Of a stretch of 42,378 bases of DNA, positions 1 to 42,368 are shown piece after piece (the stretch's first letter is position 1; every line of letters starts with the position of its first letter). The position numbers and the translations under genes are program-made. Source of the DNA: Escherichia phage LF82-23; the sequence record PV660458. One strand, written 5' to 3'. The notes below the pieces were generated by a model. That model saw only the letters and a program-made list of their open reading frames with translations. It made no database searches and was not told where the DNA came from.

Positions 1-306
1 ATGGCATCCGTGAACAAGCAGCTCGATGGGCTGCACCGGATGCTGGTGGAGTATCTGTCCGACCGCTTGGCCGACGCTCGTAGGAAAGATGAACATGGTA
101 ATATCATCGAACCTATGGCGGCGGCTGAGCTGTCCGTACTTCGCCAGTTCCTGAAAGATAACGGTATTCAGGCTGATAAAGACCACGCCGACGATTTACT
201 CGCGCTGCAAGAGCAGCTTAACAACGAGAAAACGGAAGCAGGTCGTAAAGATATCATGTCTGCTGCCATCAACTCAATCGCAGAAGATAGCGGGATGATG
301 CACTAA
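1..306 (+). CDS. probable terminase small subunit (DNA maturase A-like)
   Basis: 101-aa ORF starting at window base 1; stop overlaps the start of the large terminase ORF (TAATG at 304-308); AAGGAG at 42367-42372 at the window end would be its RBS if the sequence is circular. Assignment by position and size only. Confidence 0.5.
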   Translation: MASVNKQLDGLHRMLVEYLSDRLADARRKDEHGNIIEPMAAAELSVLRQFLKDNGIQADKDHADDLLALQEQLNNEKTEAGRKDIMSAAINSIAEDSGMMH

Positions 307-2066
307 TGGATTTACAACGCCGCATGGTGATGGCAGGAATCGTTCGCGCCCACTACGAGAACAACTTCCCGCTGTTCCTGCATGACTACTTCGCATGGCT
401 GGGCTTTGACCTCACTGAAATGCAGCTCGACATTGGCCGCTACATGGCCGACCGGACGCTCAAGAACAAGTGCGTCATGGCTCAGCGCGGTGAGGCAAAG
501 TCCACCATCGGTATTGCTCGCGCCCTGTACGAGTTCGTTCAGATGCCGAACGCCACTGTGTTGTTGGTATCTGGTTCGGACGACTATGCGGGTACGCTGT
601 CGCACGCCATCGTGTCTGCCATTATGCAATGGGAGCGTCTGGAATGGCTGCGCCCTGAGACTCGCGCTGGCGCACGTACGTCCTATACGGACGGCTTCGA
701 CGTGCATCACGCATTCCGTATCCCTGACAAACAGCCCTCTGTAAAAGCGGTCGGTATCTTCGGCCAGTTGCAGGGGAACCACGTATCGCTGTTGATTGCC
801 GATGACGTGGAGACTACCAGTAACGGTAGCTCTCCTGCCAACCGCGCCCGTATCAACACCCTGACCAAAGAGTTTGCGGCTATCGCCAACGATGGTGCAG
901 AGATTCTGTACCTCGGCACACCGCAGACGCAGGACTCCATCTACAACACGCTCCCGCAGCGTGGCTTCGACGTTCGCATCTGGCCCGGTCGTTTCCCAAC
1001 GGTTGAGGAAGAAGAACGCTACGGCGGCTGTCTGGCCCCGTGGATTAAGCAGAAGATGGAGGGCCACCCGGAACTTCGCACAGGCTACGGTATCCTTGGG
1101 AACCGTGGTGCGCAGACCGACCCGCAACGCTACTCCGAAGAAAAGCAGTTGCAGAACGAGCGAGACTACCAGCAGGCAGGCTTCCAGTTGCAGTTCATGC
1201 TGGATACGTCGCTGTCGGATGCGCTCAAACAAACGTTACATCTCAAAGACTTAATCTTCTTCCACGGCTCAACGCAGTCTGCGCCGGAGGTTCTGCATTG
1301 GTCGAACCACCCGCGCCATGCCGCCGAGCTGCCACTGGATTTCCCACTGGCTCGCGCTCAGCTATTCTTGGCTGCTGATTTCTCGGACACTTATGTACCA
1401 TTCGAAAATACCTCGGCGTTTCTTGACCCTGCTGGTGGTGGGTCGGACGAATCAGTTATCATCGCCACCGCTTCTGTCGGCCCGTTTATCCACGTCATTG
1501 GTATGCACGTCTACCACGGCGGCCAGACGGAGGAAAACATCAAGGCGGCGGTAGAGTGGCTCGCTGAAACCGGGGTCAAACGGCTGGTCATTGAGGATAA
1601 CATGGGCCACGGCACCGTGACCAACATGTACCGAGGTGAGATTAAGCGCCAGAGCTTGACCATTGGCTGTGAGGGCGTGTACTCGTCTGGCCAGAAAGAG
1701 GTGCGTATCATCAACCGCCTTGGCCCAATCATGCAGCGCCACCGTGTCGTCGTGCATTGGTGCGTTGTTGAAGAAGACCTGCGGCTGTGTCGCGGGATGA
1801 ACAACGGTGGTCGAGAGTTCAGCCTGTTCTGGCAGCTCCAGAACCTGACACAAGACCGTCAATCCATCCCACACGATGACCGTATCGAAACCCTATCTGC
1901 TGCCGTGTACCTGCACGCTGAGGTGCTACAGCAGGACGAACATGAAGAAGCTGCCAAGCGCGAGACGGCTGCCGCACGAGAGTTCCTTGCCAACCCAATG
2001 GGTTACGATGACTCGAAGTGGCGTAGCCATAAGCCTGTGCGTGGCGTGCGACGGAGACTACGTTAA
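306..2066 (+). CDS. terminase large subunit (DNA maturase B)
   Basis: 586-aa ORF, translationally coupled to the upstream small ORF; size and position typical of T7-group large terminase; N-terminal region resembles T7 gp19-family proteins as I recall them (not searched). Confidence 0.8.
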   Translation: MDLQRRMVMAGIVRAHYENNFPLFLHDYFAWLGFDLTEMQLDIGRYMADRTLKNKCVMAQRGEAKSTIGIARALYEFVQMPNATVLLVSGSDDYAGTLSHAIVSAIMQWERLEWLRPETRAGARTSYTDGFDVHHAFRIPDKQPSVKAVGIFGQLQGNHVSLLIADDVETTSNGSSPANRARINTLTKEFAAIANDGAEILYLGTPQTQDSIYNTLPQRGFDVRIWPGRFPTVEEEERYGGCLAPWIKQKMEGHPELRTGYGILGNRGAQTDPQRYSEEKQLQNERDYQQAGFQLQFMLDTSLSDALKQTLHLKDLIFFHGSTQSAPEVLHWSNHPRHAAELPLDFPLARAQLFLAADFSDTYVPFENTSAFLDPAGGGSDESVIIATASVGPFIHVIGMHVYHGGQTEENIKAAVEWLAETGVKRLVIEDNMGHGTVTNMYRGEIKRQSLTIGCEGVYSSGQKEVRIINRLGPIMQRHRVVVHWCVVEEDLRLCRGMNNGGREFSLFWQLQNLTQDRQSIPHDDRIETLSAAVYLHAEVLQQDEHEEAAKRETAAAREFLANPMGYDDSKWRSHKPVRGVRRRLR

Positions 2067-11567: not shown

Positions 11568-12001
11568 AGCCAAAGTATAAAGTCGGGGATGAAATCGTAG
11601 GCGACGATGGCACTGGCACCCGGTCGGGTAAGCTGGGCATCATTGCGTGGGTTAACCCTGACCGCCGAGCGTGGGAGCGTAGCGGGGAGACTCGTTACAT
11701 CGTGAGCTGGATTGGTGAGCGCCTGAATGCGCAGCCGGATATCAGCCACTACAAATCTGATTGGCTGGAGGACAACACCAGTCTGGTCAGTACCCCGGCG
11801 CAGCAGCGCGGTCGGTTCATGTGCGTGGTCGAAGGTGGCAGCACGCCGCCGAAGGTTGAGCACATCACTGAACGTGAAGCGCGTGAAGAAGCTGAGCGAC
11901 TGGCCGAGCGCCACGGCGGTACTGTCCGTGTGCTGCAAGTTATTGCCAGCGTGAAGATGAAGAAGAAGATTCAGTACATACCGGACTGGGATAACGAATG
12001 A
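11561..12001 (+). CDS. hypothetical protein (146 aa), N-terminal KOW/SH3-like motif
   Basis: N-terminus YKVGDEIVGDDGTG resembles that of the ORF at 14362 (LKVGDRVINIDTRS). Confidence 0.5.
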   Translation: MVKPKYKVGDEIVGDDGTGTRSGKLGIIAWVNPDRRAWERSGETRYIVSWIGERLNAQPDISHYKSDWLEDNTSLVSTPAQQRGRFMCVVEGGSTPPKVEHITEREAREEAERLAERHGGTVRVLQVIASVKMKKKIQYIPDWDNE

Positions 12002-12708
12002 TGAAATCAGTGAGCAACGACGAGTGGCCGGAGCTGGCGAAGCGTCTGCCAGTAGGACAAAAGCGAAGGACGTTTCACAGTTGCTCCCGGTCATTCAGCA
12101 AGACCAACTTCGAGTACGGTCGTGCGCCGGATTACATCTGGTGCAAGTGCCACCGCTGTGGGTATAGCCGCAAGCATGACTTAACTCATGCAGTGTACGT
12201 GCCGCCAGCGGAGGTGCAAGTGAAGGTGCCAACTGATGTGGTGCCTATCACTGAGGTGATTGCCAAGCAGCCACGCTTGCTGCTGCCAGTGCTGGAGCGG
12301 GAGAACCTGATGCCGCACCTGTCTATCCTGACTGCAAGCCCAACGTATGGCAGGCTGTATCTGCCGGACGACACGGGCAGCTACTGCGGTCTGGATTATA
12401 CCGGGCGACAGTTCATCCCGTGGCGCTCGCCGCACAAGCATAGCTTGGCAATGAAGGTCAGCCCTCGTGGTAATGCTGAGACCAACTGCCTCTGGATTTA
12501 TGGTGAGGTGGGCGAGTATCTCCAGCAGGTACGCGACGGCGGCAACTGCGCGTTCGTTCCAAACGTGGACGACTCAACGTTGCAGGCGCTGGTCAGTGTG
12601 ACGCTGGCGTATGGATACAACCTCGTGGTTATCTGTCACCACCCAAGTGCTCAACGTATCCGCAGGGAACTGCGCGTGGTAGGGCGAGTGCAGATAGTAG
12701 GAGAATGA
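11998..12708 (+). CDS. zinc-ribbon protein, possible DNA primase domain
   Basis: Cys/His cluster HSCSRS...CKCHRCGY near N-terminus; position immediately upstream of helicase (primase position in T7-group genomes); TOPRIM motifs not confidently seen. Confidence 0.35.
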   Translation: MMKSVSNDEWPELAKRLPVGQKRRTFHSCSRSFSKTNFEYGRAPDYIWCKCHRCGYSRKHDLTHAVYVPPAEVQVKVPTDVVPITEVIAKQPRLLLPVLERENLMPHLSILTASPTYGRLYLPDDTGSYCGLDYTGRQFIPWRSPHKHSLAMKVSPRGNAETNCLWIYGEVGEYLQQVRDGGNCAFVPNVDDSTLQALVSVTLAYGYNLVVICHHPSAQRIRRELRVVGRVQIVGE

Positions 12709-13107
12709 ATGACACCTTGCATTGAGCACGGGCAGAAGGGTGATAAGTCTGGCTACGGTATGGCTAAGTATCGCGGCCAGTTCATGCGACTGCACCGCGC
12801 AGTATACTGCGAGCACAACGACACTGACCCGGCCAGCATCAAGGGCAAGGTGGTCATGCACCGTTGTGATAATCCACGCTGCATTAATCCAGAGCACCTG
12901 CTGCTGGGTACACATGCCGACAACATGCTGGACATGAGCCTCAAAGGTAGGCAGCCAAAGCCCAAGCTCACACCTGAGCTGGTGGCGCAGGCCGCTGAGC
13001 TGGAGTCGGCTGGCGTATCACAGCGTGAGATTAGCGAACGCCTCGGCGTGGCGCAGTCCACAATCAGTAGGGCATTGAGAAAGAGGACGTGGAAGCATGT
13101 TGGATAA
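12709..13107 (+). CDS. HNH endonuclease with C-terminal helix-turn-helix
   Basis: Motif HRCDNPRCINPEHLLLGTHADN (HNH) and C-terminal SQREISERLGVAQSTISRALRKR (HTH). Confidence 0.7.
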   Translation: MTPCIEHGQKGDKSGYGMAKYRGQFMRLHRAVYCEHNDTDPASIKGKVVMHRCDNPRCINPEHLLLGTHADNMLDMSLKGRQPKPKLTPELVAQAAELESAGVSQREISERLGVAQSTISRALRKRTWKHVG

Positions 13108-14362
13108 GTTGTTACTGTCTGTCATGAGGGAGCGGGGTAAGTATAACTCCTTACGCCACGCCATTCCTGATGACACCATGAGCCAGACGACCGGGTACAT
13201 GCTGCGTGCGTATGGTTCTTACTTCGATGCGTTCCCGGATTCAGACTACGTGGATTTGGAAACGCTTGGCACTCACGTAAGGTTAAAGACTGGCAGTACG
13301 CCGGAGCAGATGGGTGCGTTCGACTCACTGTGCTCACAGCTAAAGGAGTACAAGCCGACCAAGCAACAGATGGAAGGTATCATCGACCAACTGGTGGAGC
13401 TTGACACGGCAGGCCGAGTGAACCTGTTAGCACAGAGGTATGATAACGGTGAGGAAATTGATTTTATCTATGAGCTTGGCCGTCTGGCTGAGGGCGCACG
13501 CCGCAGTCGGGGTCAATCATCCGTTACCGATTACGTCGATGACGATGTTGTTGACATTATTAACCGCACTGATGATGACCAAGGTTTTAAGTTCGGTCTC
13601 ATGTGTCTGCAAGATAGCGTACGCGTACTGCTTCCCGGCGACTCCGTTGCAATCGCTGCCCGACCTGACAGTGGGAAGACCAGCTTCATCGCGTTTAACC
13701 TTACGCGAATGGCGGCGACAGCAGCGAAGCTCTATCCGGGCAGACCAATCCTGTGGTTCAACAACGAAGGGCAGGGCATCAACATCATCCCGCGCATCTA
13801 TCAGGCGGCGCTCAACTGTACGCTCCCGGAACTGAAAGAGCTGGGTGAGGACAGGGGCAAGCTGCACGCTGCGTATGCCAAAGCACTGGGTGCGCCAGCC
13901 AATGTGATTCGTGTTAAGGATATGCACGGCGCGACGCTGGCGAAAGCTGAGCAGGTTATCGAAGCGATGAACCCGTGCATCGTGGTGTGGGATATGCTTG
14001 CCAACTTCAAGCTGTCTGTGTCTGACCCGTCGAGCAACAAGGCGAGTCAGGTCGAGCAGCTATGGCAGGAGGTACGTGAGCTGGCAGTGCGTCACAACTT
14101 TGTGTCGCTGGCTACGGTTCAGGTATCGGCTGACGGTGCCGACGATATGTTCCCGGCGCTCGACGCATTGAAGGATTCCAAGACTGGTATCCAAGGGGCG
14201 ACTGATGTTATCGTGATGCTCGGCAGCGTGGATGACCCATCGCTGGCGGCGCGGCGCGGTGTCAGTACGCCGAAGAACAAACGCCAGATTGCTGGGCGTC
14301 CAAGCAACGTGCGGTCACAGGTACACTTCTTTGCTGACCGCTGCCAATACGAGGATATGTAA
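13097..14362 (+). CDS. replicative DNA helicase (T7 gp4 helicase-domain / DnaB-like)
   Basis: Walker A AARPDSGKTSF; size and position before DNA polymerase. Confidence 0.65.
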   Translation: MLDKLLLSVMRERGKYNSLRHAIPDDTMSQTTGYMLRAYGSYFDAFPDSDYVDLETLGTHVRLKTGSTPEQMGAFDSLCSQLKEYKPTKQQMEGIIDQLVELDTAGRVNLLAQRYDNGEEIDFIYELGRLAEGARRSRGQSSVTDYVDDDVVDIINRTDDDQGFKFGLMCLQDSVRVLLPGDSVAIAARPDSGKTSFIAFNLTRMAATAAKLYPGRPILWFNNEGQGINIIPRIYQAALNCTLPELKELGEDRGKLHAAYAKALGAPANVIRVKDMHGATLAKAEQVIEAMNPCIVVWDMLANFKLSVSDPSSNKASQVEQLWQEVRELAVRHNFVSLATVQVSADGADDMFPALDALKDSKTGIQGATDVIVMLGSVDDPSLAARRGVSTPKNKRQIAGRPSNVRSQVHFFADRCQYEDM

Positions 14363-14715
14363 TGAGCAGATTGAAAGTAGGTGACAGGGTAATCAACATC
14401 GACACACGTAGTGTACATCACGGTGCCAAGGGTACTGTCGTGGATGTGAGCGACCGCTACATCAGCATCGACCGCGATGATGGTGCTCGTGGTTCTGGCA
14501 TCGGTGGCTCGTGGACTGCGCGGCACAAGTCGTGGGAGTTACTGAAAGAGGTAGCCGAGGCACCGGAGCCGACAACTGCTGGTGAGGACTGGAGCTACGC
14601 TGAGGCTGAGCGTCTGTATCAGGCAGCATGTGATGCCATGTCTGTTTACAATCAGTACGTTGAGCGTAAGCCTACGACCAACTACCTGACTGGCGCGGCA
14701 CCGACTAAGTGGTAA
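14362..14715 (+). CDS. hypothetical protein (117 aa), N-terminal KOW/SH3-like motif
   Basis: ATGA-type overlap with helicase; N-terminus paralogous to 11561-12001. Confidence 0.5.
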   Translation: MSRLKVGDRVINIDTRSVHHGAKGTVVDVSDRYISIDRDDGARGSGIGGSWTARHKSWELLKEVAEAPEPTTAGEDWSYAEAERLYQAACDAMSVYNQYVERKPTTNYLTGAAPTKW

Positions 14716-14726
14716 AGGAGAACACG

Positions 14727-14918
14727 ATGGAAGAACGCACGTATCGAGCAGCACCTCTGAACCAACGAGAGCAGACCATCATCCGGGCGCAGTACCGGAA
14801 GGGTGATTCGTTCCGTGGTGCTGAGGCATTGGCTGAGCGATTCAATGTGCCGCCTGCTGATGTGGTGGCAGTGGTGAACTTCACTTACCGTAAGGGGAAA
14901 CAGAAGCATGACAAGTAA
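14727..14918 (+). CDS. hypothetical protein (63 aa)
   Basis: AAAGGAG 6 nt upstream of ATG 14727. Confidence 0.5.
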   Translation: MEERTYRAAPLNQREQTIIRAQYRKGDSFRGAEALAERFNVPPADVVAVVNFTYRKGKQKHDK

Positions 14919-15591
14919 TGCCGAAGTCAAGCGCGTGTGGGCAGAGGATATCTGCCGTCTGCTGCAATCCGAAGAACTGAACTTCGTGGTTGCCGGGGGA
15001 GGGGCAAGGGATACCGCGCTGGGTGTTGAGCCGAAGGACTACGACATTGTGGTCTTCGGTTGGGGCGGCGACCTGAGCCGTGTGGCTGGCCGACTGGACT
15101 GGCTGGACTCCAGACTGGAGGACTATGCCGAGCAGCACGGGCTGGCGTATGAGTACATGCCGAGCTATCACGATGCGGCAGAGGGTGGCGACTTTGGTTC
15201 CCGACTGTACGGGGTGTTCAAGATTGGCCCGGTCGATATCATCATCAGTAAGTGTGGCTGCTGGTCACAGGTGCTGAATGAGTTTGACTTCAACCTGAAC
15301 CAGTTCTACTTCCCGTCCAGCATCCCTCGCTACTCCGGCCAGTACAGCCGTGACCCCGGTGAGTTCATGGCTTATCCGTACGAGCCGAACCTGACCGCCG
15401 CCGATGTGCAGTGGTATCCGGCGCTGGCCAGTCTGGTTGAAAGCTACGACGACCTGCTGACTCTCCGTGTCTGCCGACCGGATGCAAGCCTGAGTCGTTA
15501 TGCCTACATGCTGGAGAAGCACGAGCGGCTGCTGCCGTCCATTCAGGAGTACGTGAACAATAAGCCTGACCACTTAGGTGGCCAAGCATAG
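14908..15591 (+). CDS. Pol-beta superfamily nucleotidyltransferase, CCA-adding/poly(A) polymerase head-domain-like (minimal, 227 aa)
   Basis: Motif NFVVAGGGARDTALGVEPKDYDIVVFG matches the class-II tRNA nucleotidyltransferase signature GGxVRDxxLGxxxKDxD (compare E. coli CCA enzyme [25 protein letters not shown], from memory). Confidence 0.6.
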   Translation: MTSNAEVKRVWAEDICRLLQSEELNFVVAGGGARDTALGVEPKDYDIVVFGWGGDLSRVAGRLDWLDSRLEDYAEQHGLAYEYMPSYHDAAEGGDFGSRLYGVFKIGPVDIIISKCGCWSQVLNEFDFNLNQFYFPSSIPRYSGQYSRDPGEFMAYPYEPNLTAADVQWYPALASLVESYDDLLTLRVCRPDASLSRYAYMLEKHERLLPSIQEYVNNKPDHLGGQA

Positions 15592-15601
15592 CGGAGGACT
15601 G

Positions 15602-18067
15602 ATGGCAATTAGAGCACAGGTGATTGACGTTGAGACCGAGAACCATGAGTGGTATGGGGAGCTGGCATCGCCGCGCTGCCCGGATAACTATGTGGTTATG
15701 CAGGGTCAGCGTGACTGTGTGCTGACCAAGGATGGCTGGGTGTTCTACGAGCGCGAGGAATATCGGTACAGTTCGAGGGAGGATTGGTTGCAGAACAAGA
15801 GCCTGCACCTACATCCCGACACGAACATTCTGGTAGCCCACAACGCGCCGTATGAATTGAGCTGGTGGTTCGAGCATTACGGTGACGAGTTCATTGCCTT
15901 CCTCAAACGAGGTGGCCGTGTATTCTGTACCGCGTATGCTGAGTATCTGCTGACGCATCAACAATCCCAGTACCCATCCTTGAACGAGACAGCACCGAAG
16001 TATGGCGGTACTCACAAGGTGGATGCAGTCAAGGCGATGTGGGAGTCAGGCTACCTGACCAGCCAGATTGACCCTGAGCTGCTGAGCGAGTATCTGTCCG
16101 GGCCGTCCGGCGATATTGAGAACACGACCAAGCTGTTCGTTGGTCAGTGGGCAGAGCTGACGAAGCAGGGTATGTTGCCGATGGCACTGACCCGGTTCGA
16201 GGGTATGCTCATGTGGGCGTACATGATGCACGCTGGTCTGCATGTTGACCGCGAGGTTGCCGAGCGCAACCGCCGTGAGTTGCAGGATGCAATCAGTGGG
16301 CTGACTGATACACTGCTGAGTTACCTGCCAGCCGACATGCCGAAGGAGGCGCGTGAGCAGTTCAAGTTCACGTCAGCTTATCACATGAGCGCGTTCGTGT
16401 TCGGCGGCGTGATGAAGTACAAGGCGCGAGTCGAGCGCCGGGATGGGGATGGCAATCTCATTTACGTGAAGGTGGATGCGCCACTGTTCAAGCGAGGCAA
16501 GGACAAGTGGGTCAAGCATACCAGTGAGTGTGAGTGGGATGACGAGACCGGGCTATGGTATGACCCGGTTGAGAAGGTACACCAGACCATCTACTCCAGC
16601 GGGAAGAACAAGGGTGCGCCTAAGTTCGAGAAGCTGGCGACGGATGAAGTGGATACCAAGTGGGGTGAGGTGCTGTTCCGTATGCCGGGCCTCCTGCGTG
16701 TGCAGGATAAACGAGCGAAGGAGATTGCAGACAACCTCGAATGGGAAGACCCGAAGCGACCGGGTGAATACCTGCGGCGCACGGGTGACTGGGTTGGTAA
16801 GCGCAGGCTTGCCGATGGCAGTCCGGTATTCAGTACGGCGGGTGAGGTGCTGGACATTCTGGCAGCTCGTAAGATTCCCGGCGTGGTGGAGATTGCCGAC
16901 CGAGCCAAGGCACAGAAAGACCTCGGCACTTACTACCTGAGCGAGACGTTCGATGAAGAAGGGAACGTGACTGGCCAGTCGGGGATGATGCAGTTCATCC
17001 AGCCGGACAGTATCGTACACCACACCATCAACATGACCGCGACGGAGACGACGCGCTTATCATCGGCGCGACCTAACAGTCAGAACTTGCCACGTAAAGG
17101 TACGAGTAAAGTTAAGCAGATGTTCACCTCACGCTTTGGTGAGGGTGGCCGCATCGTTGAGGCTGACTACTCGGCACTGGAAGTGGTGGGGCTGGCCGGG
17201 TTCAGCAAGGATAAGAACCTGATTCGTGCATTGCTCGACGGTATCGACATGCACTGTATGCGTCTGTCAGCTCAGCTCAACGAGCCATACGAGGACGTGC
17301 TTAAGAAGTGCAAGGATGAATCCCATCCTGACCATGCACGATACAGTCAGATGCGTACTGACATTAAGCCGAAGGCGTTCTCATATCAGTATGGTGCAAC
17401 AGCGCGAGGCATTGCGTACTCGACTGGTTGCTCTGAGGAAGAAGCTCAAGCGTTCATCGACAACGAGAAGGGTCTGTTCCCGGAAGTTGAAGAATGGTTC
17501 GACTCGGTTATCTTCCCAGCCGTAGAGAAAAGTGGACAGAGCAATGTGTTCAAGGAGCAGGACGAGAACGGACGGTGGCAGGTGTATCGCCGTGGTCACT
17601 TCCGGTCGCCGGGTGGAACTTGTTATTCATTCCGTCAGTATGAGAAATGGAACAAGGCGGCGCGTGCTCACCTGATGGAATACAAACCAACTCAGATGCG
17701 TAACTATCCGATTCAGGGTGAGACCGCATTTTGGGTACAGGGAATCGGTGGCCTGCTGTTCCGCTGGCTGCTATCGAACGACTTCTTTGGTGGGCGTGTG
17801 GTTCCCATCAACCAAGTGCATGACGCATTCTATTTCGACATTGCACCTGACTGCCCCCACGAGTTCTTCGTTGGACTCAAGGCAATCATGGAAAGCATCC
17901 CGGAATACTACAACCACGTATGGCCAGAGTATAACCTGACAGTGCCGTTCCCGGCAGAGGTGGAAGCAGGGCCAAGCATGTACGAGAAGCACCACGTAGA
18001 GACGACAGCCGATGAAGTGCTGGAGTTTAAGAGACAATTCCTGACGAGTAAGGGTATCGCATTATGA
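15602..18067 (+). CDS. DNA polymerase, family A (T7 gp5-like)
   Basis: Motif A DYSALEVV, motif B RTDIKPKAFSYQYGA, motif C VHDAFYF; N-terminal exonuclease D-x-E (DVETE). Start chosen at ATG 15602 (GGAGG 4 nt upstream); ORF track begins at GTG 15578. Confidence 0.85.
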   Translation: MAIRAQVIDVETENHEWYGELASPRCPDNYVVMQGQRDCVLTKDGWVFYEREEYRYSSREDWLQNKSLHLHPDTNILVAHNAPYELSWWFEHYGDEFIAFLKRGGRVFCTAYAEYLLTHQQSQYPSLNETAPKYGGTHKVDAVKAMWESGYLTSQIDPELLSEYLSGPSGDIENTTKLFVGQWAELTKQGMLPMALTRFEGMLMWAYMMHAGLHVDREVAERNRRELQDAISGLTDTLLSYLPADMPKEAREQFKFTSAYHMSAFVFGGVMKYKARVERRDGDGNLIYVKVDAPLFKRGKDKWVKHTSECEWDDETGLWYDPVEKVHQTIYSSGKNKGAPKFEKLATDEVDTKWGEVLFRMPGLLRVQDKRAKEIADNLEWEDPKRPGEYLRRTGDWVGKRRLADGSPVFSTAGEVLDILAARKIPGVVEIADRAKAQKDLGTYYLSETFDEEGNVTGQSGMMQFIQPDSIVHHTINMTATETTRLSSARPNSQNLPRKGTSKVKQMFTSRFGEGGRIVEADYSALEVVGLAGFSKDKNLIRALLDGIDMHCMRLSAQLNEPYEDVLKKCKDESHPDHARYSQMRTDIKPKAFSYQYGATARGIAYSTGCSEEEAQAFIDNEKGLFPEVEEWFDSVIFPAVEKSGQSNVFKEQDENGRWQVYRRGHFRSPGGTCYSFRQYEKWNKAARAHLMEYKPTQMRNYPIQGETAFWVQGIGGLLFRWLLSNDFFGGRVVPINQVHDAFYFDIAPDCPHEFFVGLKAIMESIPEYYNHVWPEYNLTVPFPAEVEAGPSMYEKHHVETTADEVLEFKRQFLTSKGIAL

Positions 18068-18963
18068 CCGCATCTGTATTGAACCGCATGAACTCCATCG
18101 TCGAACAGTATGTTGACGAGGAAGAACTTGACTTTAACGAAGCCACGTCTGGTGGTGGTAAGCTGCTGCCGGAAGGTAAAGCGCTGGCACGTCTGGTTGG
18201 CTACATTGAAGTGGGGCCGAGCGTAACCAAGCAGGCACCGGACAAGCCGCCTGTCAATAAGTTCTTCCTCCAGTTCGCGCTGTGGGGCAAGGCCAAGAAC
18301 GGCGAGACTTACCATGAAGTTGTCAATGGTAAGATGGTGCCGGGCAAGGTGCGCACGCAGTTCATCGCTGTGAAGAAAGACCTGAACAGCAAGTCCGGCG
18401 CTTACAAACTGTTCAAGCGTATGAACCCGGACAAGACTGCGAAGCACTTCGCGCAGCTTCTGAACCACACCTTCATCGTTCCGATTATCCACAACGAATC
18501 GGGCGAGGGTGAGAACAAGAAGGTGTACGCCAACATCGACCTTGAGAACATCATGCTCGCGGTTGACCCGGTGACTGACCAGCCGTACCCGGTGCCGGAA
18601 GTCGAAGACGAGACGCTGTTCAAGCTGTTCCTGTGGAACCGTCCGACCAAGGAAGACTGGGAATCCCTGTACATCGAAGGCAAGAACGACGATGGCAAAT
18701 CCAAGAACTGGATTCAGGACAAGCTGCTGGAGTCTCCTGAGTTCCCCGGCTCTCCGCTTGACCTGCTGCTGAATGGCGCTGGCGCTGGCTCGGCAATCGC
18801 TGAGCTGCCGGAGCTGGGTGACGTGGGCCAGCCGGAGGAAGTGGCTGAGGTTAAGCAGGAAGTGCAGGAGCTGGCGACGGCGGGTGCGGCTGACAAGTCG
18901 GCAGCGTCCAAGCCTGAGCCGGACGTGACTGGCGATGCTGACTTCGGCCTGCCGAGTTTGTAA
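18064..18963 (+). CDS. hypothetical protein with acidic C-terminal tail, possible ssDNA-binding protein
   Basis: ATGA overlap with polymerase stop; acidic C-terminus with terminal aromatic (GDADFGLPSL), reminiscent of T7 gp2.5 tail; weak inference. Confidence 0.35.
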   Translation: MTASVLNRMNSIVEQYVDEEELDFNEATSGGGKLLPEGKALARLVGYIEVGPSVTKQAPDKPPVNKFFLQFALWGKAKNGETYHEVVNGKMVPGKVRTQFIAVKKDLNSKSGAYKLFKRMNPDKTAKHFAQLLNHTFIVPIIHNESGEGENKKVYANIDLENIMLAVDPVTDQPYPVPEVEDETLFKLFLWNRPTKEDWESLYIEGKNDDGKSKNWIQDKLLESPEFPGSPLDLLLNGAGAGSAIAELPELGDVGQPEEVAEVKQEVQELATAGAADKSAASKPEPDVTGDADFGLPSL

Positions 18964-21558: not shown

Positions 21559-21779
21559 CGAGAACACTGTACCAAGAAGATGTGGTGCAGCTCAAAGAGG
21601 ATGGCCTTTCCATTGAGTGGGAGGCCAACACTCAGGTCGAGCTGTATAAGGATGGCACCGTCTGCATTTCGCAGGACGGTGAGGAAGTCTGGTTGCCTTG
21701 GGCATATGTCCGGGATATTATTTTCGCTCTTGAGGAAGCACACGATGCACATGAAAGACACCGTAGTAGTAGACCTTGA
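21555..21779 (+). CDS. hypothetical protein (74 aa), GTG start
   Basis: GTG overlapping upstream stop (GTGA) with GGAG 10 nt upstream; overlaps next gene by about 35 nt; uncertain. Confidence 0.35.
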   Translation: MTRTLYQEDVVQLKEDGLSIEWEANTQVELYKDGTVCISQDGEEVWLPWAYVRDIIFALEEAHDAHERHRSSRP

Positions 21780-22272
21780 CGGCACGCTGGCTGATGGCCG
21801 TTGGCGTTTACACCTGCTGCCTCCACCGGAGCGTCGGCACCTTGATGAAGCGTGGGCCGAGTTCAACTTGGCTGGCGCTGACGACCCTGCGTTTCAGGAC
21901 ACGATTGATATTGTGAACGCTCTGGCCCTCACGTATCGCATTATCATCCTGACCGGACGCGGAGCCGTGGCCCGTGAAGTAACCGAGCAGTGGCTTGACG
22001 AAGCTGGTGTGGTTTACGACAAGCTAATCATGAGAGAGATTGGCGACTGCCGTAAGGACACGGAGATGAAGCTGGCGGCGCTGGAGGATATCGGCATCGA
22101 GAACATCGTCTGTGCTTTCGATGACCTGCCCCACATCGTGGACTTTATGCGTGGCCTCGGCATCACGGTTTATGAAGTGACCCGGTATGAGGACAATCAC
22201 GAGTATGTTCACGCAAATGCTAAATACGATGGCGCTGATTCTAAGGTCGATGGAGGTAAGGCGAATGGGTAA
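21745..22272 (+). CDS. HAD-superfamily phosphatase (DxDGT motif)
   Basis: N-terminal VVVDLDGTLADG (HAD motif I); GAGGAAG 6 nt upstream of ATG 21745; ORF-track start 21580 rejected. Confidence 0.6.
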   Translation: MHMKDTVVVDLDGTLADGRWRLHLLPPPERRHLDEAWAEFNLAGADDPAFQDTIDIVNALALTYRIIILTGRGAVAREVTEQWLDEAGVVYDKLIMREIGDCRKDTEMKLAALEDIGIENIVCAFDDLPHIVDFMRGLGITVYEVTRYEDNHEYVHANAKYDGADSKVDGGKANG

Positions 22273-22843
22273 GAAAGGTCAGAAGTTTATCTTAGACCCG
22301 ACACGCAACTGGGGCACTGGTACGCTGCTGAGCGACATTGCTGAGCAAGGTATCATCCTGACGTATGACGAGCCGTACGATGTGCCGAACGACAGCCGTG
22401 ACTACTACACCTGCGTCAAGGATGGCACGACCCACCTGCTGGTGTTGGAACCCTACGAAGTGAAGGAGGTTGAAATGTCCTTTATCCCGAACGACCCGTA
22501 TGACCCTTCCAGTGATGTTGAGGTGGCCGTGGTCAAGAGCGCCGGGCCGGGCGGTATGAAGTTCGACGGCGGCAAGCCCCGCATGTCTCTGCTGTTCGAC
22601 GGCTGCCCAAATGCACTGGAGGCTGTGGCCAGCGTGCTGACCTTCGGCGCTGAGAAGTATGCAGCTCACTCGTGGCAGACTGTACCGGAAGGTGAGGAAC
22701 GCTACAAGTCAGCATTGCTCCGGCACCTGACGGCGGTGGGCAAGGGTGAGGAACTGGATAGCGAATCCAACCTGCATCATCTGGCGCACGCCGCGTGCAA
22801 TGCGCTGTTCATTCTGGAACTCGAATTAAGGAAACGTAAATGA
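22265..22843 (+). CDS. hypothetical protein, possible all-alpha NTP pyrophosphohydrolase (MazG-like / dATP-dGTP diphosphohydrolase-like) domain
   Basis: C-terminal KFDGGKPRMSLL...FGAEKYAAHSW...LLRHL...GEELDSESNLHHLAHAACNALFILE resembles that family as I recall it; GGAGG 8 nt upstream of ATG 22265. Confidence 0.35.
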   Translation: MGKKGQKFILDPTRNWGTGTLLSDIAEQGIILTYDEPYDVPNDSRDYYTCVKDGTTHLLVLEPYEVKEVEMSFIPNDPYDPSSDVEVAVVKSAGPGGMKFDGGKPRMSLLFDGCPNALEAVASVLTFGAEKYAAHSWQTVPEGEERYKSALLRHLTAVGKGEELDSESNLHHLAHAACNALFILELELRKRK

Positions 22844-39800: not shown

Positions 39801-39984
39801 CCTTGACCGCGCTTACGGTGTGGCGGGTGCAGCTACCAGTGCTGCTGGTGGCGTGCTGACTGGCGATACTGAGCAGGCAGTGTCTGGCGCTCGCAAAGCG
39901 GCAGGCAACATCATCCAAGCTATCCCACTCATTTCAATCGTGCCGGGAGTCCGAGCACTCAACGAAGCAGTTAAGGGTGAATAA
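36877..39984 (+). CDS. internal virion protein C (gp16-like)
   Basis: 1035-aa ORF at the gp16 position; ATGA overlap with the preceding gene. Confidence 0.6.
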   Translation: MIITQESLDKFMAPKQGANAPTLVIPAPVKTADLSTPLQDATRQGAVEQFDKMQELEATPMATALSASVKNWDTTQLFDAAINKPVFQADPNFHPNEALQNVQFPVGEDDRKFLFKSKSMDEFNWRTQQLQEMRERTQLAHTAPVMNAVLQFADPLYLATDLLSMGAGTALKLGRLGTAAVGAASTAATMTAVGNEARPVSQNEIIFAAALHGAATTAFYRPAPVQRSLADLSPEEFAAEMQRRNGIDPNNPPQFDPNNAMSPMAMSLGFGGRGATVVDEVPESIRAAAQRGLDLARRGEQTNPKRPFLEWSLFKSFSQHSDEASALAGRLLDDPLNPNMTSAAAIQRETQARFGVLLNQYEDTLRNALSTDGWTNIRRFRDPVGYRRAQQEFEAAVRLELDKRMIDKEFRGANEKVAAAADRLGEYSRAVGRELETKGMVEPGFVDKNPYYYPRRMNVTKIEQAEQLLGKKPFMKQMTTAVQRGIGTDRPTANVIAHAMVERARRKGYGVDNSGMIINKEGRDELLEIIENSKGLDEAAKARASALLRESGSDAGRPSMLKSRINIDMMHTLGPNLQVRDLFDDSITSMMDSYNRRITGRLALHEAGLGTDAERVAAREALAKSIKDGTARRQALAQYDNIMAYYQGAPVGEEMPQFMRQLSALTQATGLAASGLWQLVEYGTMMQRFGAVNTFRAMMRTIPEARALFKQMRVSTKEGRQLALDAEEALTAAVASDIRMRPIMQHYDDMFSADKSPWVMRLEHARDATMFINMQKYIHFHQTRTNAALVMQTLRKAAEGDAKAIAAMKTYGANDALLSDIRKQVGTHGTKPDAWDEGVFNRSRIVMMNAMDDAIVRARVGELPAFAEFSTLGKFLFTFRRFVAATHNKTLVGTWNREGARGMATLMAYQYPLAMMATAANNVISGKAFSDPDTMAPNKLAGQALNYLGAIGFASEFTGVLTGQQRSFGAPGLLFLDRAYGVAGAATSAAGGVLTGDTEQAVSGARKAAGNIIQAIPLISIVPGVRALNEAVKGE

Positions 39985-42368
39985 TGGCGAACAGCTATAA
40001 CGCTTACGTGGCAAACGGAACGCAGACCGCGTTCCTTGTCACCTTTGAGCAACGCGTGTTCACTGAGATTCAGGTGTACCTCAACTCCGAACTCCAGACG
40101 AGCGGGTACACCTACAACTCTGTGACCAAACAGATTATCTTCGACACCGCCCCGCTCGCCGGGGTGATTGTCCGACTCCAACGTTACACCTCTGAGGTTC
40201 TACTGAACAAGTTCGGCCAAGACGCTGCCTTCACTGGGCAGAACCTTGACGAGAACTTCGAGCAGATTCTGTTCAAGGCCGAGGAAACTCAGGAAGCATG
40301 GCTCGCGCCGCTTGACCGCGCCGTCCGTGTTCCAAACTCTGAGGTCTCTATCAACGCATTACCGAACGTCGCTGGCCGCCGCAACAAGGCATTGGGCTTT
40401 GACAGCAATGGCCAGCCGTTCATGATTCCTCTGGTCGATATCCCGGACTCCGCTCTGGCGATTGCTCTGGCAATGGCTGACGGCGGTAAGTGGATTGGTA
40501 CTCTTGGTGGTGGCACGTTCCTCGACCGTCAGGATACCGTATGCCTGTCCGAGTTCACCAACAATACCGGGTACGCTTCTACCGCCGCTGCGGTGCAGGC
40601 TTGCTTCGATTATGCCAAGGCCAACAACAAAGTTGTTGATGCCCGTGGCTGGGAAGGTACTGTCAGCTCCACTGTCCTGATGGACGGTATTGAGGTTGTC
40701 GGTGGTACGTGGAATGGTACAGCAGACATTCGACTGCTGAACGCCACGTTCCGCAACTTCTCTGCGTCAAAGGTTCGTGTCTGCTACTGGGGCGGCAATG
40801 TACGCATTGCTGACTACGAGTTCACCGACCACCCATCGGCATCGAAAGTTGCCAGTATTCTGTTCCAAGGCAACATCGCCGGGGGCAGCTACGTCATTGA
40901 GAACGGCGTACACCGCAATGGCTACTTCGGTATTCTCCAGCAAGGTACTGGCGAAACCATTGACAACGGTGTGATTCGCAACATCGCGCTCATGGATATG
41001 GCTGGTGACGGTATTGAGATGAACGTAATCAACAAGCACTATGATGGTGGCCTGTCGATTGAGAACATCTACCTCGAAAATATCAACGGTATCAACCCAA
41101 CCTCCAACCCATCCTTCGTATCCAACTGGGGTATCGGGATTGGTCTGGCTGGTCAAGGGCCGTTTGGCTGGGATGCTGCTGAAACCCAATACGCGAAGAA
41201 CATCACAGTCCGTGGTGTTCATGCTCCGCGCGGCGTGCGACAAGTCATCCACTTCGAGGTGGCCAAGAACTGTTCAGTGTATGACGTACACGCCAACCCT
41301 GACCTGACTGTTTCCAACGGTACGGGCCTGACCGCCGCTGGTGTTATCACCTACGGCTGCAAGGACATGGTTATTGACGGGGTGTACGGTGAGCCTATCG
41401 TCGGCACCACAGGCACTGACCCGGCTGCTGTTCGTCTGGTGATGTGTGAGTGGGGTGCTAACCAAGCGGGTGCAGGTGGTGTGCCGGGTGCATCTAACCC
41501 GTCATTCAACATGACGCTGCGCAACATCTACACCAAGACCGGGCGTGTCTACGCTGGTGTTGGCTCCGATGATGTGAACACCAACGTATACCACCTTGAG
41601 AACATCCACTGCTACCGTCTGAGCCTCTTTGGTGTGGCAACCCTCCTGAACATGACCAACGTGACGGGTGTTGACTTCGACTGCGTAGGCGATGACTCCA
41701 GCGGCGGTACGTCCTCTAATGGTGTGTACCCGCGACGCAAGACCTGCCTGAACATGGTGAACGTGAACTTCTATGGGCCGGGCATGACAGAGGGTGCGCT
41801 GTACAGTAAGGCTCGCTACACGGATATCAGTACTCTGAACTCCAACGTGCGTGCTATTCCGTACTCCAACATCCAAGGTAACGTTGGCGTTATCCTGTCT
41901 CCGGTCAACCGTATGTACACGCTACCAAACGACCTTGCGACACTGACTGGCGGGGAGTTCCCAACTGGTAGGGAGTTCTGCGAGGGTACGGTACTGTTCA
42001 AGACCGATGGCTCCGGTGGCAACTTCATAGTTACCAAGTTCGGTGCCTACATTCCCAATGACGGCAACAACTTCAAGGTGCGTGCTGCTGCCGCTGGCCA
42101 GACTTATCTGGAGCAGAACCTGACTCCGGCTGGTACTCAGGCTTCTACCTCGTGGCTGTACCATAAGCCAATCTCTGCTGGTACTCGACTGAACATTCCG
42201 GGTGCCGGGCCGGGCGGCGATACGCTCACTGTGACGGTGGTGCGTGCTCCGTATCAGGTGGACAACAACATCGGAAACCCGGTGCGCATCGACATTACCC
42301 CGGCCATTGTGACGGCAATCCCTGCGGGAACGCAGCTCGCCGCTACCTACCCGGTGGCCTACATCTAA
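39984..42368 (+). CDS. tail fibre/tailspike with T7 gp17-like N-terminal anchor and beta-helix (polysaccharide depolymerase-like) domain
   Basis: N-terminus AFLVTFEQRVFTEIQVYLN...FTGQNLDENFEQI follows the T7 gp17 adaptor pattern; central region shows periodic N/G/I/V-rich repeats typical of right-handed beta-helix (pectate-lyase-like) tailspikes. Confidence 0.7.
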   Translation: MANSYNAYVANGTQTAFLVTFEQRVFTEIQVYLNSELQTSGYTYNSVTKQIIFDTAPLAGVIVRLQRYTSEVLLNKFGQDAAFTGQNLDENFEQILFKAEETQEAWLAPLDRAVRVPNSEVSINALPNVAGRRNKALGFDSNGQPFMIPLVDIPDSALAIALAMADGGKWIGTLGGGTFLDRQDTVCLSEFTNNTGYASTAAAVQACFDYAKANNKVVDARGWEGTVSSTVLMDGIEVVGGTWNGTADIRLLNATFRNFSASKVRVCYWGGNVRIADYEFTDHPSASKVASILFQGNIAGGSYVIENGVHRNGYFGILQQGTGETIDNGVIRNIALMDMAGDGIEMNVINKHYDGGLSIENIYLENINGINPTSNPSFVSNWGIGIGLAGQGPFGWDAAETQYAKNITVRGVHAPRGVRQVIHFEVAKNCSVYDVHANPDLTVSNGTGLTAAGVITYGCKDMVIDGVYGEPIVGTTGTDPAAVRLVMCEWGANQAGAGGVPGASNPSFNMTLRNIYTKTGRVYAGVGSDDVNTNVYHLENIHCYRLSLFGVATLLNMTNVTGVDFDCVGDDSSGGTSSNGVYPRRKTCLNMVNVNFYGPGMTEGALYSKARYTDISTLNSNVRAIPYSNIQGNVGVILSPVNRMYTLPNDLATLTGGEFPTGREFCEGTVLFKTDGSGGNFIVTKFGAYIPNDGNNFKVRAAAAGQTYLEQNLTPAGTQASTSWLYHKPISAGTRLNIPGAGPGGDTLTVTVVRAPYQVDNNIGNPVRIDITPAIVTAIPAGTQLAATYPVAYI

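Follow-up and report, generated by a model that had tools for sequence, protein, structure and literature searches.

Here we examine a small gene of Escherichia phage LF82-23 (sequence record PV660458), a mini class-II-type nucleotidyltransferase (NTase) gene at 14908..15591 on the + strand. The window, by which we mean the whole stretch of 42,378 nucleotides (nt) that was analysed, is a complete genome of a Bonnellvirus-like podophage of the phiKMV supergroup, permuted relative to its GenBank relatives. It shares ~93% nucleotide identity with Escherichia phage megetsur and Enterobacter phage BHUENT7, and is also related to Bonnellvirus J8-65 and Pantoea phage LIMEzero. The gene lies between those of a DnaB-type helicase (13097..14362) and a family A DNA polymerase; its open reading frame (ORF) starts with ATG, ends with a TAG stop at 15589-15591 and encodes a protein of 227 amino acids (aa). 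An earlier note on this DNA had described at this position a 227-aa protein with a class II head motif, and translation bears this out, with GGGARDTALGVEPKDYDIVVFG at residues 30-51. We consider the ORF to be a real gene rather than a chance reading frame, because a full-length match to PHROG 1614 ('nucleotidyltransferase'; E 1.8e-44, aa 2-224) is accompanied by homologues in the protein collection and by relatives in 254 phage records and 381 sequence clusters. Its RefSeq orthologue, J8-65 gp17, is 86% identical and already annotated as 'nucleotidyltransferase, similar to LIMEzero gp22'.

On sequence comparison it is secure that the protein is a homologue of the catalytic core of class II enzymes, comprising the head domain and the first neck helix; the gene product is not a demonstrable CCA-adding enzyme. 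Conservation along the protein was scored across 153 family representatives with no more than 50% mutual identity. G30, G31, R34, D44, D46 and R197 are invariant, D35, P42, D110, F126, D127, N129 and N131 are at least 90% conserved, and further conservation is seen at K43, Y87, R99, K105, Q132, P140, Y/F142, G144, L186 and K204. The family signature GG..RD...G..PKD.D belongs to motif A (aa 30-49, GGGARDTALGVEPKDYDIVV; 14995..15054, this and all following segments of the gene being on the + strand), identified from conservation and from the alignment with Escherichia coli Cca, and holding the predicted nucleoside triphosphate (NTP)-binding GG..RD and the catalytic D44 and D46. Here GGGARDTALGVEPKDYD at aa 30-46 corresponds to Cca residues 8-24, with motif A close to identical in the two, and reproduces the class II pattern GGxVRDxLLGxxxxDxD with its two catalytic Asp residues. 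A putative third catalytic carboxylate, D110, is kept in 151 of the 153 representatives; it sits in the segment VDII (aa 109-112; 15232..15243), within a predicted strand (E109-114) of the AF2 model, and the same h[DE]h pattern of Pol-beta NTases was noted in Klebsiella phage fHe-Kpn01 Gp22 (PMC7291057). Motif A together with the carboxylates D44, D46 and D110 is thus consistent with an intact catalytic core and two-metal catalysis.

The remaining class II motifs are eroded. Motif B is degenerate (aa 126-133, FDFNLNQF; 15283..15306): aligned by hhalign with RRDLTINA of Cca, and measured against the RRDxTxNA pattern, it keeps D127 and N131, carries N129 in place of the Thr, and has lost both Arg residues family-wide. 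Of motif C there is a remnant (aa 140-144, PRYSG; 15325..15339) that aligns with DPYNG of Cca and in which P140, Y/F142 and G144 are conserved, the motif C Asp of class II enzymes being replaced by Pro. It is followed by a clade-specific insertion between motifs C and D (~aa 145-185; 15340..15462), gapped in 130-152 of the 153 representatives, conserved within the Bonnellvirus/LIMEzero clade and modelled with low confidence. A motif-D-like segment then runs into the first neck helix (aa 186-208, LRVCRPDASLSRYAYMLEKHERL; 15463..15531), with R197 present in all 153 representatives and conservation at L186, R190, D192, S/T194, K/Y200 and K204, position 192 being D/E in only 83 of 153. In the alignment, L186..D192..R197..Y200-M201..K204 sits on LLRHV..ED-PLRVLRVARFAAR of Cca motif D. 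The register LLRHV..EDPLRVLRVARFAAR places R197 opposite the second Arg of EDxxRxxR and S194 opposite the templating Arg, and it hinges on a single-residue gap within a remote alignment. Read in this way, the EDxxR template is not preserved and its Arg position is S, T or P across the family.

Beyond this point the protein soon ends. No motif E, body or tail was found: the chain stops 30 residues past R197 and has no PolyA_pol_RNAbd match. In the AF2 model (mean pLDDT 76.8), an alpha-beta head of the Pol-beta NTase kind leads into a long helix at the C-terminus (195-218); confidence is ~90 for residues 1-125 and poor for 144-190, with values below 50-60 at 144-154, 172-177 and 185-187. The protein has an isoelectric point (pI) of 4.57 and a net charge of -15, and the family median pI is 4.9.

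Placement of the head domain with class II enzymes comes from several comparisons. Searched against the PDB, the family profile retrieves CCA enzymes and poly(A) polymerase at E 1e-9 to 1e-5, and the fold of the head domain is closest to class II structures. Pfam PolyA_pol is matched (E<=0.01) by 61 of 142 family members, at best with 5.4e-7, compared with no more than four members for any other NTase family in Pfam; profile searching had been proposed in the earlier note as a check on its identification, and the outcome agrees with the class II lineage. Aligned with E. coli Cca by hhalign, the family reaches a probability of 88% (single sequence) or 91% (a shallow profile built from Cca 1-230, which holds relatives of at least 71% identity only; Neff 2.6), with E ~1e-6 over 139-140 columns. 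This alignment spans motifs A to D and stops at about residue 153 of the 412 of Cca, in keeping with the earlier observation that the long neck and body of the cellular enzymes are missing. The family profile also retrieves a genuine PolyA_pol protein of metagenomic origin (P0123; 1455 aa, on a 1.2-Mb contig) with four tandem complete class II units (PolyA_pol plus PolyA_pol_RNAbd), which may be an unusual architecture or a gene-calling fusion.

Set beside the PolyA_pol (PF01743) enzymes, such as E. coli Cca, PcnB, the Aquifex A-adding enzyme and the Thermotoga maritima CCA enzyme, the phage protein differs in length (227 aa versus ~400-470 aa), in its strong acidity, in the absence of the RNA-binding motif E, body and tail, and in belonging to an almost purely phage family. 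Small single-domain Pol-beta NTases of ~176-195 aa are also represented by NP_344798.1 (PDB 2la3), a stand-alone cellular protein with a CCA head domain, and by the tRNA-extending MenT/AbiEii toxins. MenT enzymes are reported to extend the acceptor ends of tRNAs while having neither body nor tail (PMC11541572, PMC10435456). Because both the C/A-selecting protein template and all tRNA-anchoring domains are missing, the phage protein would not be a sequence-specific CCA builder. The label "CCA-adding-type" given in the earlier note therefore stands as a statement of class II lineage, upheld by profile and fold, and is not supported as a statement of activity, given the lost templating Arg, motif B Arg residues, motif E and anchors. 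For the present, the gene should be annotated as "class-II-type nucleotidyltransferase, substrate unknown" rather than as a CCA-adding enzyme.

PHROG 1614 is a large family whose small, acidic members come almost exclusively from phages and are spread across several Autographiviridae lineages. The protein collection contains 29 homologues with 37-100% identity to the 227-aa NTase, and the 254 phage records in which tblastn locates relatives are nearly all from ~40-kb Autographiviridae, with Pseudomonas (128), Vibrio (44), Klebsiella (37) and Escherichia (16) among the host genera. A profile search of 1.8 billion representatives returned 381 clusters at E<=0.001, nearly all of 150-230 aa and aligning to profile positions ~10-135; occurrence in cellular genomes was judged from cluster look-ups, and the sampled clusters come mostly from metagenomic contigs that are phage-sized or shorter (~45 kb or less). 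BFVD fold matches are likewise small phage proteins, from LIMEzero, LKD16, RSB3, a Friunavirus ('tRNA nucleotidyltransferase') and ICP1 (ORF223). LIMEzero gp22 is an orthologue with 39-40% identity, LKD16 ORF16 is matched by the family profile at 99.2% (hhalign), and fHe-Kpn01 Gp22, PP47 gp28 and VP93 ORF16 are further Autographiviridae members. From these other members the Bonnellvirus/LIMEzero clade differs by the ~40-residue insertion between motifs C and D and by a longer C-terminus.

Members of the family have been noticed before. Many of the tblastn relatives are labelled 'nucleotidyltransferase' in GenBank, and one 'CCA tRNA nucleotidyltransferase'. One study treated the family as 'tRNA nucleotidyltransferase', rooted its tree on LIMEzero, and noted that 37 of the 46 Autographiviridae of Pectobacterium have it but just 60 of the more than 500 remaining ones (PMC7693777). 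Klebsiella phage fHe-Kpn01 Gp22, a 182-aa protein with motifs at positions 29, 44 and 114 and an HHpred match to CCA enzymes at 99.8%, was toxic in E. coli (PMC7291057), the only PHROG 1614 member for which such toxicity is reported. A Drulisvirus orthologue that we fetched is also 182 aa long, has the same motif positions and matches the window NTase, which makes fHe-Kpn01 Gp22 a probable Drulisvirus member of the family. The observation in the earlier note was correct; the note had overlooked this wide prior annotation and discussion (PMC7693777, PMC7291057), as well as the relation to Gad2 described below. Overall, the distribution of the small NTases is patchy and tracks hosts rather than phage phylogeny. 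The position of the gene varies between genera and no neighbour is conserved across them, as in a mobile accessory gene confined to the middle block, which serves DNA metabolism.

Gad2 is a ~400-aa Gabija anti-defence protein of SPbeta-like phages with a predicted NTase domain, and SPbetaL7 Gad2 is itself toxic on expression (10.1101/2023.05.01.538930). Like the small NTases it is phage-encoded and has an N-terminal NTase domain with h-AGG, D-x-D and FDF(T/N). We built by hand a profile of ten Gad2-family sequences (from supplementary table 10 of 10.1101/2023.05.01.538930); the broad mini-NTase profile aligns with it at 94.7% probability (E 5.6e-8) over 100 columns, which cover the generic head only, and with a single Gad2 sequence at 49.5%. 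Judged by the family profile, the NTase domain of Gad2 and Cca are matched to a similar degree. In a search with the family hidden Markov model (HMM), a 214-aa stand-alone Gad2 homologue from Streptococcus suis scores 34 bits versus 22 bits for Cca. Since Gad2 and Cca are not significantly similar when compared directly, the mini-NTase family forms a bridge between them. The C-terminal helix spacing S/T-x2-R-x2-K-h-x2-K is common to mini-NTases and Gad2 (SLLRVQKYTDK), and its register is shared with R-x2-R-x2-R-F-x2-R of Cca. Differences are also apparent: the Gad2 proteins tested are 394-400 aa long, with a ~230-aa C-terminal region absent from the 227-aa NTase, and the RD and PK of motif A, present in the small NTases, are missing from most Gad2 sequences. 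Proteins of 214-278 aa that consist of the NTase alone, from S. suis, Schlesneria and Rhizobium, are on the published list of homologues of Gad2; the one from Schlesneria carries a class-II-like GGSLRD motif, and the anti-Gabija tests covered only the ~400-aa forms (10.1101/2023.05.01.538930). Taken together, the similarities suggest that the small NTase family is distantly related to Gad2.

Around the NTase gene, translational coupling is suggested on the upstream side, where the stop of a 69-aa ORF (14709..14918, +; PHROG 31596, J8-65 gp16) overlaps the NTase ATG. Directly downstream lies the family A DNA polymerase gene (15603..18067, +), recognised from the J8-65 annotation and from a DNA_pol_A match in the orthologue L003. 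Its start is likely the ATG at 15603 rather than the mechanically called GTG at 15578, which overlaps the NTase gene, because GGAGGA precedes this ATG and the J8-65 polymerase begins 11 nt past the NTase stop. Reverse-strand ORFs lying over the NTase gene (14881..15171, 15265..15573 and 15365..15808) are unsupported, and the annotated genes of relatives are all on the + strand. The window encodes no tRNA genes.

The earlier note had also remarked that no ligase was recognisable and that the NTase occupies the place where a ligase is often found. The first remark is confirmed: tblastn with the ATP-dependent ligases of two phages, Pf1 and LKD16, finds nothing in the window at E<=1e-3 (best ~1), no suitable ORF of the window contains KxDGxR, the NTase itself has no KxDG, and J8-65 has no annotated ligase. 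The second is apt as a description of position and fails as a substitution. The fold of the NTase is of Pol-beta type and not that of a ligase, and both Phikmvvirus LKD16 (in the order helicase, ORF16, ATP-dependent ligase, DNA polymerase) and Ghunavirus Pf1 ERZ-2017 (where the NTase lies between amidase and primase/helicase) carry both genes, which rules out a ligase replacement. Elsewhere the NTase gene follows the polymerase gene (Drulisvirus and VP93) or precedes it (PP99); neighbours differ between genera, and a conserved adjacent partner gene is thereby ruled out.

A HAD-type PNKP phosphatase is encoded at 21580..22272 (+; Pfam HAD_PNKP, E 3.2e-14, aa 60-201). In relatives the gene is annotated as 'polynucleotide kinase'; no kinase domain was detected in the product, which is probably a 3'-phosphatase only. 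The 3' end of this gene overlaps the next one, and its true start may lie downstream (the J8-65 version has 175 aa). Among the genera compared, this phosphatase co-occurs with the NTase only in Bonnellvirus and Drulisvirus, and an obligate partnership of the two is ruled out by the regions of Ghunavirus and LKD16 that were examined, in which no such phosphatase was detected.

Other features of the window were noted in passing. Upstream of the NTase operon, a 117-aa protein (14362..14715, +) has weak, sub-threshold N-terminal matches (E 3e-4 and 0.07) to SH3-like and ProQ-C-terminal-like domains, which are Tudor-like and of the RNA-chaperone type. Should these matches be real, the NTase could have an RNA-binding protein as its neighbour; the adjacency of the two is not kept in other genera. 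A gene at 12709..13107 (+) for a 132-aa HNH endonuclease with a C-terminal helix-turn-helix (PHROG 59, E 1.4e-33) separates the primase (11998..12708) from the helicase (13097..14362), and looks like a homing-endonuclease insertion because it is absent from J8-65, where primase and helicase adjoin. Just past the DNA polymerase, 18064..18963 (+) encodes a 299-aa protein with no Pfam match, assigned to PHROG 862 and bearing an acidic tail (...GDADFGLPSL), which is probably the phage single-stranded DNA-binding protein. A 218-aa product of 22187..22843 (+), hypothetical in J8-65, has a dATP/dGTP diphosphohydrolase N-terminal domain (Pfam dGTP_diPhyd_N, E 5.5e-33; MazG-like). Relative to J8-65 the record is circularly permuted, opening with the genes of the small and large terminase subunits (1..2066) and closing with the tailspike gene (39984..42368), so that the physical genome ends (terminal repeats) lie inside the window, presumably near 4.4-5.5 kb.

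As to what the NTase does, we tentatively favour, with somewhat less than even confidence, a template-independent and non-CCA-specific addition of nucleotides to RNA 3' ends in the service of an accessory host-takeover or counter-defence role. From the conservation of GG..RD, D44, D46 and D110 we infer two-metal nucleotidyl transfer to a 3'-OH. GG..RD, K43 and the invariant R197 would hold an NTP, whose nucleotide would be moved without a template to a 3'-OH acceptor, most probably the end of a tRNA or other RNA. With no C/A template and no tRNA anchors, the enzyme would either act promiscuously or need a partner protein. Expressed together with the DNA-metabolism genes, it would serve neither as a core replication function nor in place of a ligase, but in host takeover or counter-defence, analogous to Gad2. 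We prefer this reading because the nearest characterised relatives are RNA-specific, a probable Drulisvirus member is toxic in E. coli, the distribution is patchy and host-linked, and a relation to Gad2 can be traced.

Several points weigh against it. RNA as the acceptor comes solely from the nearest characterised relatives, and even the class II assignment needed family profiles: PF01743 scores the 227-aa protein at 14 bits (cut-off 23) over aa 28-49 only, and searches with the single sequence (Pfam, NCBIfam, PDB phmmer) yielded nothing beyond sub-threshold matches to motif A. The strong acidity of the protein is unfavourable for unaided RNA binding, and the loss of both motif B arginines leaves the choice between NTP and dNTP (ribose selectivity) open. 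The gene is always found among DNA-replication genes, in LKD16 beside the ligase, which suits a DNA-end function equally well. Gad2 is linked only remotely: with the profile of the close family (A1), the alignment to the Gad2 profile reaches a non-significant 1.3%, nine close homologues carry a precomputed Pfam PF26128 (Gad2) match graded only 'faint', and the mechanism of Gad2 was still unknown in February 2026 (PMC12904381). Our literature search found no biochemical report on any PHROG 1614 member.

One alternative is a genuine minimal repair of tRNA 3' ends (adding C, CC, CCA or A) after attack by host defence nucleases, perhaps together with the HAD-type 3'-phosphatase. In its favour, the nearest characterised relatives are CCA- and A-adding enzymes and many GenBank records and one paper use the name tRNA nucleotidyltransferase. 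The PNKP-type HAD phosphatase encoded 6 kb downstream, which recurs in Drulisvirus, would fit with it, as would the fusion of NTase and phosphohydrolase in the 412-aa E. coli Cca. It is nevertheless a function for which the protein seems poorly equipped: the templating Arg of EDxxR and the motif B arginines are gone, and when the human CCA enzyme was mutagenised under selection, no variants with a replaced templating Asp or Arg were recovered (PMC11784652). There is neither motif E nor a body or tail to anchor tRNA on so acidic a protein, the NTases of Ghunavirus and LKD16 occur with no HAD phosphatase detected in the regions examined, and toxicity on overexpression would not be expected of a faithful repair enzyme. 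We therefore give tRNA repair only a slim chance; the earlier note had proposed it, and the proposal is not supported, in view of the missing template Arg and anchoring domains, the charge of the protein and the absence of tRNA genes from the window. The same loss of motif B arginines, one of which in class II enzymes touches the 2'-OH of the ribose, would on the other hand suit an enzyme of DNA ends, i.e. a terminal (deoxy)nucleotidyl transferase or gap-filler at phage DNA ends or nicks, working with exonuclease, Mre11-like phosphoesterase, 3'-phosphatase and, where present, ligase. Such a role would account for a gene that always lies in the DNA-metabolism block by helicase, DNA polymerase or primase, that directly adjoins the ATP-dependent ligase gene in LKD16, and that has a 3'-phosphatase and a DNA-repair exonuclease close by. 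Position is weak evidence, however, as T7-type middle blocks hold many non-DNA genes; the nearest relatives are all RNA-specific, the acidic protein has no DNA-binding domain, and it occurs with or without ligase and phosphatase, so that we rate this possibility slightly lower still.

Two further alternatives dispense with RNA tailing. The protein could be a counter-defence factor in the manner of Gad2, blocking a DNA-targeting defence (Gabija, for instance, or another system of OLD/Toprim type) by nucleotidylating a defence protein, the DNA that this acts on or a nucleotide cofactor, with no RNA tailing. The alignment with the ten-sequence Gad2 profile, the higher score of the S. suis homologue compared with Cca, the common helix register, the nine faint Pfam matches and the NTase-only proteins on the Gad2 list all speak for this, as do the patchy phyletic pattern and the toxicity shared by SPbetaL7 Gad2 and the related fHe-Kpn01 Gp22. 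Yet the match is limited to the 100 columns of the generic head and is not significant for the close family, motif A (GG..RD...G..PKD.D) is of the class II pattern, RD being absent from most Gad2 proteins, the ~230-aa C-terminal part is absent, and we know of no anti-Gabija test of short homologues; we consider this account unlikely, though the likeliest of the four alternatives. Least probable, in our estimation, is the nucleotidylation of a protein or small molecule in the way of ANT(2'')/Lnu or MNT enzymes, for example the AMPylation of a host toxin or defence protein. The size and architecture of the phage protein resemble those of ANT(2'')-Ia, LnuA and MenT1, which are among its fold matches, an acidic surface suits a substrate other than nucleic acid, and a few family members weakly match Aminoglyc_resit, DUF2204 or NTP_transf_2; the family profile itself gave no match to CD-NTase, AbiEii/MenT or antibiotic NTases.

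With the gene described here, a further member is added to a family whose database label is already "nucleotidyltransferase" and which two papers have discussed in silico. The question it raises is what use hundreds of T7/phiKMV-like phages make of a stripped-down core of CCA/poly(A) type. The bridge to Gad2 is the one point that may be of interest to specialists, and if this link were confirmed, the small NTases of E. coli phages would be convenient models for enzymatic anti-defence. It is conceivable, if rather doubtful, that the small Autographiviridae NTases are enzymatic counter-defence factors and represent the free-standing module from which Gad2 was built. They might then act by nucleotidylating or tailing a component of host immunity, such as Gabija/OLD-type nucleases, or by resealing toxin-attacked tRNA 3' ends with the phage 3'-phosphatase. 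Were this true, it would mean that phages have recruited the class II tRNA-nucleotidyltransferase core for immune evasion, and would provide a tractable handle on the mechanism of Gad2.

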